64,000 nucleotides of DNA from Escherichia coli (GTDB taxonomy: Bacteria > Pseudomonadota > Gammaproteobacteria > Enterobacterales > Enterobacteriaceae), in the NCBI RefSeq assembly GCF_048403405.1, contig NZ_CP183129.1; one strand, 5' to 3'. Under the pieces are notes generated by a model. The model did no database searches. It worked only from the letters and a program-made list of their open reading frames with translations, and had not been told where the DNA came from. Shown in pieces: positions 8,505-49,621 of the stretch; the stretch's first letter is position 1, and the number at the start of each line of letters is the position of its first letter. A program made the position numbers and the translations under genes.

Positions 8505-9005
8505 ATGCACGAGAATCAACAACCACAAACCGAGGCTTTTGAGCTGAGTGCGGCAGAGCGTGAAGCGATTGAGCACGAGATGCACCACTACGAAGACCCG
8601 CGTGCGGCGTCCATTGAAGCGCTGAAAATCGTTCAGAAGCAGCGTGGCTGGGTGCCGGATGGCGCGATCCACGCGATCGCCGATGTGCTGGGTATTCCGG
8701 CGAGCGACGTCGAAGGTGTGGCAACGTTTTATAGCCAGATCTTCCGCCAGCCGGTTGGTCGCCATGTGATCCGTTATTGCGACAGCGTGGTCTGTCATAT
8801 CAACGGTTATCAGGGTATTCAGGCGGCGCTCGAGAAAAAGCTGAACATCAAACCAGGGCAAACGACATTTGACGGTCGCTTTACGCTGCTGCCAACTTGC
8901 TGCCTGGGGAACTGTGATAAAGGGCCAAACATGATGATCGATGAGGATACTCACGCACATCTGACCCCGGAAGCGATCCCTGAACTGCTGGAGCGGTATA
9001 AATGA
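8505..9005 (+). CDS. nuoE: NADH:quinone oxidoreductase subunit E (2Fe-2S)
   Basis: 166-aa ORF; cysteine motifs CDSVVC ... CCLGNC; overlaps the nuoF start (ATGA). Confidence 0.97.
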
Positions 9006-10339
9006 AAAACATTATCCGTACTCCCGAAACGCATCCGCTGACCTGGCGTCTGCGCGATGACAAACAGCCAGTGTGGCTGGACGAATATCGCAGCAAAAAC
9101 GGTTACGAAGGCGCGCGTAAGGCGCTGACCGGGCTGTCTCCGGACGAAATCGTTAATCAGGTAAAAGACGCTGGTCTGAAAGGGCGCGGCGGCGCGGGCT
9201 TTTCGACTGGTCTGAAGTGGAGCCTGATGCCGAAAGACGAATCCATGAACATCCGTTACCTGCTGTGTAACGCCGATGAAATGGAACCGGGCACCTATAA
9301 AGACCGCCTGTTGATGGAGCAACTGCCGCACCTGCTGGTGGAAGGTATGCTTATCTCCGCGTTTGCGCTGAAAGCTTACCGTGGCTACATCTTCCTGCGT
9401 GGCGAATATATTGAAGCGGCAGTGAATCTGCGCCGCGCCATTGCCGAAGCGACTGAAGCGGGCTTGCTTGGCAAAAACATTATGGGAACAGGTTTCGACT
9501 TCGAACTGTTCGTCCATACCGGTGCAGGGCGCTACATCTGCGGGGAAGAAACAGCGTTAATCAACTCCCTGGAAGGGCGTCGTGCTAACCCACGCTCGAA
9601 ACCCCCCTTCCCGGCAACCTCCGGCGTATGGGGCAAACCGACCTGTGTCAATAACGTCGAAACCCTGTGTAACGTTCCGGCGATCCTTGCTAACGGCGTG
9701 GAGTGGTATCAGAACATCTCGAAAAGTAAAGATGCTGGCACCAAGCTGATGGGCTTCTCCGGTCGGGTGAAAAATCCGGGCCTGTGGGAACTGCCGTTCG
9801 GCACCACCGCTCGCGAGATCCTCGAAGATTACGCCGGTGGTATGCGTGACGGTCTGAAATTCAAAGCCTGGCAGCCAGGCGGTGCGGGTACTGACTTCCT
9901 GACTGAAGCGCACCTTGACCTGCCGATGGAATTCGAAAGTATCGGTAAAGCGGGAAGCCGTCTGGGTACGGCGCTGGCGATGGCGGTTGACCATGAGATC
10001 AACATGGTGTCGCTGGTGCGTAACCTGGAAGAGTTTTTCGCCCGTGAGTCCTGTGGCTGGTGTACGCCGTGCCGCGACGGTCTGCCGTGGAGCGTGAAAA
10101 TTCTGCGCGCGCTGGAGCGTGGCGAAGGTCAGCCGGGCGATATCGAAACACTTGAGCAACTGTGTCGATTCTTAGGCCCGGGTAAAACTTTCTGTGCCCA
10201 CGCACCTGGTGCAGTGGAGCCGTTACAGAGCGCCATCAAATATTTCCGCGAAGAATTTGAGGCGGGAATCAAACAGCCGTTCAGCAATACCCATTTGATT
10301 AATGGGATTCAGCCGAACCTGCTGAAAGAGCGCTGGTAA
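9002..10339 (+). CDS. nuoF: NADH:quinone oxidoreductase subunit F (FMN/NADH-binding, 4Fe-4S)
   Basis: 445-aa [16 protein letters not shown]-site motif, C-terminal CGWCTPCR Fe-S motif. Confidence 0.97.
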
Positions 10340-10391
10340 CCGAATTTCGATTAACGCTCAGTCTCTGACTGAGAAAACTGGAAGCATGCTA

Positions 10392-13118
10392 ATGGCTACA
10401 ATTCATGTAGACGGCAAAGAATACGAGGTCAACGGAGCGGACAACTTGCTGGAAGCTTGTCTGTCTCTGGGCCTTGATATTCCTTACTTTTGCTGGCATC
10501 CGGCGCTGGGAAGCGTCGGTGCTTGCCGCCAGTGTGCGGTGAAGCAATACCAAAACGCGGAAGACACGCGTGGTCGCCTGGTGATGTCCTGTATGACACC
10601 GGCTTCCGATGGCACCTTTATTTCCATTGACGATGAAGAAGCGAAACAGTTCCGTGAAAGTGTGGTCGAGTGGTTAATGACCAACCACCCGCACGATTGT
10701 CCGGTATGTGAAGAAGGCGGTAACTGCCATCTTCAGGATATGACCGTGATGACCGGACACAGCTTCCGTCGCTACCGTTTCACCAAACGTACCCACCGTA
10801 ATCAGGATTTGGGGCCATTCATCTCTCACGAAATGAACCGCTGCATCGCCTGCTACCGCTGCGTGCGTTACTACAAAGATTACGCTGACGGCACGGACCT
10901 GGGCGTTTACGGTGCACACGACAACGTCTACTTCGGTCGCCCGGAAGACGGCACGCTGGAAAGCGAATTTTCCGGTAACCTGGTCGAAATTTGCCCGACC
11001 GGCGTATTTACCGACAAAACGCACTCCGAGCGTTACAACCGTAAATGGGATATGCAGTTTGCGCCGAGCATCTGCCAGCAATGTTCCATCGGCTGTAACA
11101 TCAGCCCCGGCGAGCGTTATGGCGAACTGCGTCGAATCGAAAACCGTTACAACGGTACAGTAAACCACTACTTCCTCTGCGACCGTGGTCGTTTCGGTTA
11201 CGGTTACGTCAACCTGAAAGATCGTCCGCGTCAGCCAGTACAGCGTCGTGGCGATGATTTCATTACCCTCAATGCCGAACAGGCAATGCAGGGCGCAGCA
11301 GATATTCTGCGTCAGTCGAAGAAAGTGATCGGCATCGGTTCTCCGCGTGCCAGCGTGGAAAGCAACTTTGCGCTGCGTGAGCTGGTGGGCGAAGAAAACT
11401 TCTACACCGGTATCGCTCACGGTGAGCAGGAACGTCTGCAACTGGCGCTGAAAGTGCTGCGTGAAGGCGGCATTTATACGCCGGCACTGCGCGAAATCGA
11501 ATCTTACGATGCGGTACTGGTGCTGGGCGAAGACGTTACCCAGACCGGTGCGCGCGTCGCGCTGGCAGTGCGTCAGGCGGTGAAAGGTAAAGCGCGCGAA
11601 ATGGCGGCAGCACAGAAAGTGGCTGACTGGCAGATTGCGGCAATCCTCAACATCGGTCAACGTGCGAAGCATCCGCTGTTTGTTACCAACGTTGATGATA
11701 CCCGTCTGGATGATATCGCGGCGTGGACTTACCGCGCACCGGTTGAAGATCAGGCGCGTTTAGGTTTTGCCATCGCCCATGCGCTGGATAACTCCGCGCC
11801 AGCGGTTGACGGAATCGAATCTGAGCTGCAAAGCAAAATCGACGTCATCGTGCAGGCTCTGGCGGGTGCGAAGAAACCGTTGATTATCTCCGGGACGAAC
11901 GCTGGTAGCGCTGAAGTGATTCAGGCTGCGGCTAACGTGGCGAAAGCCCTGAAAGGTCGCGGCGCTGACGTCGGTATCACCATGATTGCTCGCTCTGTAA
12001 ACAGTATGGGGCTGGGCATTATGGGCGGTGGATCACTTGAAGAAGCGTTAACCGAACTGGAAACCGGACGCGCCGACGCGGTGGTGGTGCTGGAAAACGA
12101 TCTGCATCGTCACGCTTCCGCTACCCGCGTGAATGCTGCGCTGGCGAAAGCGCCGCTGGTGATGGTGGTTGACCATCAACGCACGGCGATTATGGAAAAC
12201 GCCCATCTGGTGCTTTCTGCTGCCAGCTTTGCTGAAAGCGACGGTACGGTGATCAACAACGAAGGCCGCGCCCAACGTTTCTTCCAGGTTTACGATCCGG
12301 CCTATTACGACAGCAAAACTGTCATGCTGGAAAGCTGGCGCTGGTTACACTCGCTGCACAGCACCCTGCTGAGCCGTGAAGTGGACTGGACGCAGCTCGA
12401 CCATGTGATTGACGCTGTTGTGGCGAAAATCCCGGAGCTGGCAGGTATCAAAGATGCTGCGCCGGATGCGACATTCCGTATCCGTGGACAGAAACTGGCC
12501 CGTGAACCGCACCGTTACAGCGGTCGTACCGCCATGCGCGCCAATATCAGCGTTCATGAGCCGCGTCAGCCGCAGGATATTGACACCATGTTCACCTTCT
12601 CGATGGAAGGTAACAACCAGCCGACCGCGCACCGTTCGCAAGTGCCGTTTGCCTGGGCGCCAGGCTGGAACTCCCCGCAGGCGTGGAACAAATTCCAGGA
12701 CGAAGTTGGCGGCAAACTGCGCTTTGGCGATCCGGGCGTGCGTCTGTTTGAAACCAGCGAAAACGGTCTGGATTACTTCACCAGCGTACCGGCACGCTTC
12801 CAGCCACAGGACGGGAAATGGCGTATCGCGCCGTACTACCACCTGTTTGGCAGCGATGAATTGTCACAGCGAGCTCCGGTCTTCCAGAGCCGTATGCCAC
12901 AGCCATACATCAAACTTAACCCGGCGGATGCCGCGAAGTTGGGTGTGAACGCGGGCACTCGCGTCTCCTTTAGTTACGATGGCAACACGGTCACGCTGCC
13001 GGTTGAAATCGCCGAAGGGCTGACGGCAGGGCAGGTGGGCTTGCCGATGGGTATGTCCGGCATTGCTCCGGTGCTGGCTGGCGCGCATCTTGAGGATCTC
13101 AAGGAGGCACAACAATGA
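10392..13118 (+). CDS. nuoG: NADH:quinone oxidoreductase subunit G (Fe-S, molybdopterin-like fold)
   Basis: 908-aa from [13 protein letters not shown] (alternative in-frame ATG at 10386 gives 910 aa); N-terminal 2Fe-2S/4Fe-4S cysteine clusters. Confidence 0.96.
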
Positions 13119-48435: not shown

Positions 48436-48475
48436 TATCAAAGGCCCATGGGGATCGGCTGTGGGCCTGTGTTAA

Positions 48476-48649
48476 TTAGTGGTTATTCGCTGCCAGATCG
48501 GCTTCGCTTAGCTGGGTGGCTGCGAGCACCAGGTCACGATCAATGCCCTGTTCCAGCATGCGCAAAGCAATTTTAATGGCTTGTTCATGCATGCCTTCCT
48601 GCCAGCCAATTTGGTGTCCTTCCTGCCGTAGCCGTTCAGCAATAGTCAT
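48476..48649 (-). CDS. ypaA: YpaA-like small ORF: stand-alone partial duplicate of the C-terminal tail of the adjacent Rpn-family gene
   Basis: Hand translation of the minus strand gives a 57-aa ORF ([57 protein letters not shown]), below the track's length cutoff; strong SD aaggagag 7 nt upstream; nucleotide-level direct repeat of the yfaD 3' end. Confidence 0.7.
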   Translation of the reverse strand: MTIAERLRQEGHQIGWQEGMHEQAIKIALRMLEQGIDRDLVLAATQLSEADLAANNH

Positions 48650-48661
48650 TAATCTCTCCTT

Positions 48662-49621
48662 TTAATGACCGTTCGGAATATCAGCATCAGTGAGTTGGGT
48701 TGTCGCCAGCACAATCTCACGTTCAAAGCCCTGTTCCAGCATGCGCAAGGCAATTTTAATGGCTTGTTCATGCATACCTTCTACTTTGCCTTTCTGCAAC
48801 CCCTCCAATTTCCCCTCCTGCCAACCTTCAATTTTACCTTCCTGCCAGCCAATTTGATGTCCTTCCTGCCGCAGCCGTTCAGCAATAGTCATTAATCTCT
48901 CCTTTTGTAGTGGTGAACGTTCGGCAATCTCCTCAATAAAACGGGTGAAACGGGAGGTATCGCCGCATTGCAGCAGGTAATTAAACAGCGTTTGTAGCTG
49001 GCTGTCATTAGTGAAGCCTCTAACCAAAAGCGTGGTGATCCTGTCGACCATACCGATTAAATCGCGGTCGCGAATATGCTTTTGAATCAGTTCCAGCAGA
49101 GCTATACGCCGATGTTGCATGATCTCATCGTCAGGTACGATGGTGATATCCACCAACGGAAAAGCTTCGGTGTACAACTGCCGGGCAAGTTGCGGATCGT
49201 CAAACTCATCCAGCCAGTTGAGTGAGTACGGGTAGGGCGAGGTTTCGCCATGATAAAACAGCAATGGCACCACCAGCGGAACTCTGTCATAGCCTTTATC
49301 CAGGTGACGCTGCATGGCGGCAGTGGCATAGCGCATTAGCCGAAAAGCCATATTCTTTTCTGCAGAGCTTTGATGTTCAATCACGCAGTAGATATAGCCT
49401 TCACCGTCGCTGGTTTCCACAGACCACAAAACATCCGAGTAGTAAGCGCGTAAACTTTTTTCAATAAAGCTGGTGGGTTCCAGGCGTAAAGTTTGCAGGT
49501 TGCAAAGCTTGCGCAGCGGCTCTGGTAGATGTATTTCCAGAAAATCCCGAGCGGTTTCGGGTGTGAACATAAAGGTTTTAAACACCGCATCATGCGGGGA
49601 GGAGGTTGTTGATTCGGTCAT
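48662..49621 (-). CDS. yfaD: Rpn-family recombination-promoting nuclease (PDDEXK / transposase_31-like) YfaD/RpnE
   Basis: 319-aa ORF; N-terminal PD-(D/E)xK-type region ([24 protein letters not shown]) and C-terminal GWQEGK(I/L)EG repeats. Confidence 0.88.

Follow-up and report, generated by a model that had tools for sequence, protein, structure and literature searches.

The stretch of Escherichia coli DNA that we analysed (64,000 nucleotides, called the window throughout) carries on its minus strand the gene rpnE, also known as yfaD, and, directly behind it, the small gene ypaA. Several complete E. coli chromosomes match the region at 100% identity, and RefSeq names the gene rpnE in them. 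The locus is flanked by glpC on one side and by yfaU/rhmA on the other, in synteny with the glpC-rpnE-ypaA-yfaU order of strain K-12. The features of the locus are as follows.

48662..49621, minus strand: the rpnE (yfaD) open reading frame, encoding the full-length protein RpnE_L of 319 amino acids (list of open reading frames, family model NF007418 and RefSeq naming).
48995..49600, minus strand: PD-(D/E)XK nuclease or Transposase_31 (YhgA-like) domain, residues 8-209 of RpnE (Pfam PF04754, E 6.2e-88).
48893..48906, minus strand: internal Shine-Dalgarno (SD) region AAAAGGAGAGATTA, with an in-frame ATG directly downstream at 48892 (read from the sequence).
48662..48892, minus strand: rpnE_S, an in-frame internal open reading frame of 76 amino acids and a putative intragenic antitoxin (from translation).
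48776..48847, minus strand: hypervariable block of six 4-amino-acid (12-nt) repeats (Tandem Repeats Finder: period 24, 3 copies).
48650..48663, minus strand: second copy of the SD sequence, which overlaps the stop codon of rpnE by the final two bases of that codon (read from the sequence).
48476..48649, minus strand: ypaA (rpnE_Ss), a stand-alone open reading frame of 57 amino acids (list of open reading frames) that has one WQEG repeat and ends in a type A C-terminus, IDRDLVLAATQLSEADLAANNH.
48442..48468, no strand assigned: G+C-rich hairpin with a 10-bp stem that includes 6 G-C pairs, a probable bidirectional terminator (terminator scan).

The RpnE protein belongs to the Rpn or YhgA-like family (PF04754, COG5464), as its PF04754 domain attests. 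The rpnE-type equivalog model NF007418 of NCBIfam gives it 707.4 bits (cutoff 583), the RpnA model reaches 416 bits, which is under its own cutoff of 583, and TIGR01784 gives 172.8 bits (cutoff 52.1). Kingston et al. (2017) found that RpnA needs residues D11, D63, E82, Q84 and R94; all six of the positions that we compared, these five and D165 of the PDDEI motif, are kept in RpnE, and the RpnA numbering can be transferred to RpnE because the RpnA profile aligns residues 1-256 to residues 1-256. The nuclease domain has a pN/pS of 0.06 among 19 alleles, a value from which we argue that the domain is functional in the species. A PDB sequence search with full-length RpnE returned nothing relevant. 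NCBIfam FliH matches to the repeat region were rejected, all of them being far under the cutoff and attributable to composition or coiled-coil character. The annotated rpnE start at 49621 lacks a good SD sequence.

Rpn systems are a striking example of an antitoxin that is coded within its own toxin gene. Zhong et al. (2023, PNAS; PMC10400941) described the small RpnS proteins as intragenic antitoxins of the Rpn nucleases (RpnL) and reported that RpnS stops the growth inhibition, SOS induction and DNA cleavage caused by RpnL in the cases of RpnA, RpnB, RpnC and RpnP2. In the same study RpnA_S was a three-helix bundle dimer, co-expressed S protein masked the toxicity of RpnA, and plasmid-borne RpnP2 gave protection against T-even phages. 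A preliminary description of the window had presented the Rpn proteins as toxic nucleases with antiphage activity, held in check by small proteins made from internal starts, and this agrees with what Zhong et al. (2023) report for those four systems.

The four systems resemble RpnE in several features. RpnA_L/RpnA_S (PDB 7TH0), RpnB, RpnC and RpnP2 all have a PF04754 nuclease with the catalytic residues seen in RpnE, and they too have an SD sequence and ATG inside the 3' part of the gene, a small helical fold and 4-amino-acid repeats in its first helix. They have been characterised by experiment, whereas RpnE is likened to them by sequence and by the structural model of YpaA. Unlike rpnE, the rpnA gene is without a stand-alone copy downstream; another published rpn gene does have a free-standing copy of its tail, an identical architecture that phylogeny indicates to have arisen independently (Zhong et al. 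2023).

An in-frame internal start with an SD sequence in the 3' part of the gene, as in the RpnL/RpnS pairs, is found in rpnE as AAAAGGAGAGATTA-ATG at 48906..48890. The in-frame ATG at 48892 behind a near-consensus SD sequence, and a 76-amino-acid product from it, had been pointed out in the preliminary description and are borne out by sequence and translation; the product ends in ...DIPNGH. The spacing of 7 nt given there holds only under another counting convention, the distance from GGAG to ATG being 6 nt (AGATTA). Gene callers have called the identical 76-amino-acid protein on 119 contigs, with the Pfam domain PF27070 (HTH_Rpn_C), and the tail that encodes it has a pN/pS of 0.16. The K-12 rpnE gene has the same SD sequence, AAAAGGAGAGATTA, at its internal start, and the first 19 codons there encode the same peptide; that start has been mapped by Ribo-RET and by Onc112 profiling (Meydan et al. 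2019; Zhong et al. 2023). In the AlphaFold monomer of RpnE_S the repeat helix is poorly modelled, with a pLDDT of 47-52.

The ypaA gene begins 12 nt past the rpnE stop, at the junction CAT TAA AAG GAG AGA TTA ATG. The overlap of its SD sequence with the stop codon of rpnE makes translational coupling between the two genes possible. The 34-nt sequence AAAAGGAGAGATTAATGACTATTGCTGAACGGCT, made up of AAAAGGAGAGATTA, the ATG and 17 nt more, has exactly two sites in the 64-kb window, both on the minus strand (48873-48906 and 48630-48663), and it did not occur in 100 dinucleotide-preserving shuffles. The claim that the SD sequence, the ATG and the reading frame recur as a 57-amino-acid open reading frame at 48476..48649 is thus correct, as is the description of that frame as an extra copy encoded in trans: it has its own SD sequence and ATG and is the orthologue of K-12 ypaA. 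Alignment of ypaA with the rpnE tail likewise confirms a homologous direct repeat, consisting of a block of 70 nt at 97% identity (48837-48906 and 48594-48663) and a block of 102 nt at 83% identity (48680-48781 and 48497-48598). Between the two blocks the downstream copy has a gap of 60 nt, equal to five 12-nt (4-amino-acid) units. The preliminary description had spoken of the exact unit being duplicated, which is true of the 34-nt AAAAGGAGAGATTAATGACTATTGCTGAACGGCT and not of what follows it, YpaA having five 4-amino-acid repeats fewer and a different sequence over its last 21-22 residues.

Divergence between the two copies in the window is uneven. The head segment (19 codons) shows 3 synonymous and 0 non-synonymous differences and the core segment (16 codons) 1 and 0, as against 11 synonymous (pS 0.71) and 12 non-synonymous differences in the 21 codons of the end segment. 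We conclude from this mosaic that the duplication is old and that its 5' part has been homogenised or exchanged. The PF27070 (HTH_Rpn_C) domain is assigned to both the RpnE tail and YpaA in precomputed annotations of identical or near-identical proteins; our own Pfam-A scan of YpaA gave no match, this newer family appearing only in the precomputed annotations. The best PDB match of the YpaA AlphaFold model (pLDDT 74.7) by Foldseek was RpnA-S in 7TH0, with a probability of 1.00 and a target-normalised TM score of 0.73 but a Foldseek E value of only 0.024; phmmer gave an E value of 1.4e-4 for YpaA against 7TH0. Matches of YpaA to designed PPR proteins were discarded as artefacts, being sums of many sub-threshold repeat matches with 0 stretches that pass.

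Taken together, the locus in the window is the chromosomal rpnE-ypaA pair of E. coli; it belongs to the Rpn 'gene-within-gene' toxin-antitoxin family and would share that family's general mechanism, a reading to which we give a probability of roughly 0.85. Earlier papers describe the internal start, the small protein and the duplicate ypaA, and the finding is already known. The preprint by Meydan et al. (2019) reports an internal start in rpnE and remarks that its product is close to YpaA; Zhong et al. (2023) renamed ypaA rpnE_Ss, 'a second copy of RpnE_S', detected both RpnE_S and YpaA in K-12 by means of chromosomal SPA tags and found a YpaA start peak in K-12 ribosome profiling. What that study reports on RpnE, RpnE_S and YpaA is confined to expression data, and in the literature after it we found no paper that tests the function of YpaA. 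The K-12 locus (rpnE, rpnE_S and ypaA) has the same flanks as that of the window, glpC and yfaU, and the same SD and ATG unit in both copies. It also has the type E end in the intragenic copy and the type A end in the stand-alone copy. It differs in the lengths of the small proteins, RpnE_S having 56 amino acids and YpaA 61, compared with 76 and 57 in the window.

We infer that RpnE is toxic, that RpnE_S neutralises it and that YpaA has a role beside them, along the following lines. RpnE_L consists of a PD-(D/E)XK DNA endonuclease domain and a C-terminal helical HTH_Rpn_C domain, which would mediate oligomerisation and whose long first helix bears a variable number of 4-amino-acid repeats. The strong internal SD sequence and ATG (48892) would allow the last 76 residues to be made separately and probably more efficiently. 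On the model of RpnA, RpnB, RpnC and RpnP2, RpnE_S would attach to the matching C-terminal domain of RpnE_L by way of the repeat-bearing helix and keep the nuclease off; phage infection or alkaline conditions are examples of triggers that might release RpnE_L. The ypaA gene is an old tandem duplicate with an SD sequence and ATG of its own.

The K-12 protein poses a difficulty for any such scheme. Kingston et al. (2017) observed no toxicity, SOS induction or stimulation of recombination by K-12 RpnE, which has 299 amino acids and is called 'inactive recombination-promoting nuclease-like protein' by EcoCyc and RefSeq. It may be that RpnE is not a toxin in E. coli and is an inactive or domesticated paralogue, its small proteins having some other role or none in toxin control. 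Inactivity in these three assays speaks for this possibility, as do the neighbourhood of the locus, which is one of core metabolism (nrdAB, glpTQ, glpABC, the rhm, arn and men operons, and nuo) with no defence island, and a PADLOC search in which no Rpn model matched and the only match was a weak one to a 'putative invertase', an outcome that is in itself uninformative. Yet the catalytic residues are intact and the nuclease domain is, by its pN/pS, under strong purifying selection. K-12 RpnE carries the substitutions L107Q and P155L, which the RpnE of the window lacks and which were seen in 0 of the 17 other loci of our first sample; an exact match to the K-12 61-mer that spans P155L turned up in only 356 of 5,420 genomes, with MG1655, C600 and J53 among the best 8 of these 356 records. 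Moreover, the RpnE construct of Kingston et al. (2017) retained the internal start, so that RpnE_S was co-expressed, and it is S co-expression that masks toxicity in RpnA. For these reasons we consider it unlikely that RpnE is no toxin.

To see how the locus varies in the population, we drew a first sample of 18 loci from complete E. coli genomes, spaced along their ranking by similarity, and added 24 loci by way of exact YpaA variants. The type E C-terminus always belonged to the intragenic copy in the two-copy loci sampled, and the type A C-terminus (IDRDL/QVLAATQLSEADLAANNH) always to the stand-alone copy. A type E end joined to the second SD sequence, which marks the two-copy form, occurs in 3,133 of 5,426 complete E. 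coli genomes (~58%), a count that was built from joined BLAST pieces and is approximate. The other ~42% of complete E. coli genomes are without a separate copy. All six of the single-copy loci that we sampled (L004, L009 and L011-L014) have the N-terminal domain of rpnE fused to a type A end, and they are deletion fusions. One of them, L004, is a hybrid in which a repeat block of the rpnE type, including KGKVEG, is followed by the type A end; this structure is what a crossover inside the core segment common to both copies should produce. Beyond the species, the two-copy locus is also present in Escherichia fergusonii, where the tail has 76 amino acids and YpaA 65, which agrees with an old duplication. 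A divergent Escherichia lineage (L040-L042) has a single-copy locus in which rpnE is frameshifted by a 1-nt deletion; the nuclease reading frame stops there at a TGA that overlaps the start codon of S (TGATG), and the S reading frame is intact.

These data bear on the possibility that ypaA is a functionless pseudogene, the remnant of a partial duplication. RefSeq annotates the K-12 gene (61 amino acids) in this way, PGAP calls ypaA 'incomplete; missing N-terminus', and the many genomes that do without a separate copy would fit. Several observations speak against it: no two-copy locus of our sample has lost the reading frame, SD sequence or ATG, the length differences are all multiples of 12 nt, pN/pS is 0.15 among 11 stand-alone alleles, and the gene is conserved in E. 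fergusonii. By their pN/pS values, both small reading frames and the nuclease domain are under purifying selection. The start peak in K-12 profiling also speaks against a pseudogene, and detection of the K-12 protein largely refutes this interpretation, which we regard as highly improbable. RefSeq still labels this expressed and conserved small gene as a pseudogene fragment.

The number of repeats is hypervariable: the E. coli loci that we sampled have between 1 and 9 of them. In RpnE_S the repeats begin at residue 16; in the RpnL/RpnS pairs they begin 8-20 residues in and vary between strains, and the RpnE repeats do both. Zhong et al. (2023) described such a strain-variable count of 4-amino-acid repeats in the first helix of RpnS, and found that RpnC_S with one repeat more or fewer lost the ability to neutralise RpnC_L. 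They likened this to the HsdS subunits of EcoR124I and EcoR124II, in which the number of 4-amino-acid TAEL repeats sets specificity; the families are unrelated, the HsdS repeats setting the spacing of DNA target recognition and the Rpn repeats the pairing of protein with protein. RpnE tails measure 56 to 88 amino acids and YpaA 57 to 89, in steps of 4. A stand-alone copy with the same number of repeats as its nuclease, as looked for in an RpnSs protein, is not what the window has, with 6 repeats in RpnE and 1 in YpaA. The lengths of RpnE_S and YpaA are 76/57 in the window, 56/61 in K-12, and 76/65, 76/61, 68/61, 88/61, 88/73, 88/81 and 60/73 in other loci. In one lineage (L033-L039) the lengths are 72/73, the repeat numbers are matched and both copies have four extra repeats. 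Mismatch was seen in 12 of 12 two-copy loci of the first sample and in 11 of the 12 distinct two-copy configurations, but the matched lineage led us to reject systematic mismatch between YpaA and RpnE_S as a rule. Chance alone would give a match with a probability of ~0.08 per locus, and the observed mismatch is statistically indistinguishable from random; because a match is expected in only ~8% of loci, the data do not point to selection in either direction.

If the repeat rule of RpnC applies here, a rule tested only on RpnC and with a change of one repeat, YpaA should fail to neutralise the resident RpnE_L. This matters for the idea, in line with the preliminary description, that YpaA is a redundant cognate backup antitoxin, which binds RpnE_L in trans, enlarges the pool of RpnE_S and decouples the supply of antitoxin from transcription of the toxin. 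YpaA and RpnE_S share their first 19 residues and the 16-residue core helix without a single difference, and the position of ypaA directly downstream of rpnE suggests co-transcription and perhaps translational coupling. YpaA is expressed in K-12, a PNAS commentary suggests a backup-type role ('enhancing the flexibility of regulation'), and in one lineage the two copies have equal numbers of repeats. Against this stand the difference of five repeats (20 amino acids) in the window and the prevalence of mismatched configurations, when a mismatch of a single repeat abolished RpnC_S function, and the 12 non-synonymous differences in the last 21 codons. We think it rather unlikely that YpaA is such a backup. 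Because its first helix in the window strain is 20 residues shorter than that of RpnE_L and RpnE_S and its last helix has diverged, we infer that it is no simple backup antitoxin; it is more likely to be a paralogous S protein that differs in pairing specificity and whose gene also recombines with the rpnE tail.

An extension of this last interpretation, which we offer tentatively and with low confidence, is that ypaA is an expressed module of alternative specificity and that the two-copy locus is a cassette system that diversifies toxin-antitoxin pairing under pressure from phages. Gene conversion would keep the 5' two-thirds of the two copies near-identical while the 3' ends are anciently distinct, and crossovers between the copies would repeatedly rewrite the repeat number and the last helix of the RpnE C-terminus. 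A mismatched YpaA might then have a partner that is not the RpnE_L of its own strain. Alleles of the kind envisaged include the L004 hybrid, the fused forms in ~42% of genomes and the K-12 tail, the first 35 residues of which (19 of head and 16 of core) are the same as those of the window strain's YpaA.

A scan for sigma-70 consensus sequences found no promoter-like site at the locus, a result that does not establish the absence of a promoter, and a promoter internal to rpnE has been reported from dRNA-seq. At the other end, the hairpin at 48442-48468 sits between the convergent ypaA gene on the minus strand and rhmA/yfaU on the plus strand. Its minus-strand T-run (TTTGAT) is a weak one, and the hairpin probably ends both of the convergent transcripts.

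The RpnE protein of K-12 (locus L001, NC_000913.3) carries two substitutions, L107Q and P155L, that none of the 17 remaining loci of the first sample shares. The position of the second substitution has its counterpart in the window at:

49157..49159, minus strand, codon 155 of rpnE

Only 356 of 5,420 genomes have an exact match to the 61-mer that surrounds P155L in K-12, with MG1655, C600 and J53 among the best eight of these 356. The published outcome of an inactive RpnE may be peculiar to the K-12 allele.

The stand-alone copy of the rpnE tail, ypaA, is labelled a pseudogene by PGAP ('hypothetical protein; incomplete; missing N-terminus') in an identical region of another genome (NZ_CP128875.1 1602337..1602522), and it is a pseudogene in the K-12 RefSeq record too. 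The labelled interval, which starts in frame immediately after the rpnE stop codon, is equivalent in the window to:

48476..48661, minus strand, PGAP ypaA pseudogene

Despite this label, experimental detection of the YpaA protein has been published and the pN/pS ratio of ypaA is 0.15. The 76-aa E. coli YpaA variant P0008 has an internal duplication of 11 residues in the second helix; its extra length comes from this duplication and not from added 4-aa repeats, so that YpaA varies in length in more than one way.

Altered forms of rpnE were found at other loci. In three Logan assemblies from a divergent Escherichia lineage (L040-L042; approximately 88% nucleotide identity to the window) a 1-nt deletion is present near codon 195, and the nuclease ORF ends at a TGA that overlaps the start codon of S, the internal product of rpnE (TGATG). 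The 61-aa S ORF is intact. Either the toxin gene has been frameshifted and an antitoxin-like gene kept, or these loci hold a genuine pair of separate genes. In L038 (GCA_900450255.1), one genome within the matched-repeat lineage (72 and 73 aa), the internal Shine-Dalgarno motif of rpnE is changed from AAGGAG to AAGGTG (E241V), while the stand-alone copy retains a perfect one. This change would weaken translation of RpnE_S, the putative intragenic antitoxin; it was seen in a single genome and could be coincidental. An IS2 element splits rpnE after approximately codon 211 in L018 (NZ_CP157104.1, strain UTME-10).

The neighbouring genes also vary. Beside the fused, single-copy rpnE of some strains (L012, L013), the annotation treats yfaU/rhmA as a pseudogene, cut short and named 'aldolase/citrate lyase family protein, incomplete'. 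In E. fergusonii yfaU, yfaV and rhmD are absent beside ypaA, and just one small IclR-type ORF lies between ypaA and the yfaY homologue.

In the window as a whole, no tRNA genes were found, and the Rfam search gave a single match, located in the gap between two long ORFs of the nuo operon, at 9002..10339 and 10386..13118:

10342..10384, plus strand, nuoG RNA motif (RF01748), scoring 50.3 bits (gathering score 33)

The genome TUM14771, which is 100% identical to the window over the 1.5-kb rpnE-ypaA query, has its deubiquitinase gene elaD annotated as frameshifted (NZ_CP128875.1 1627233..1628456); the counterpart of this interval in the window is:

approximately 22567..23784, minus strand, elaD region
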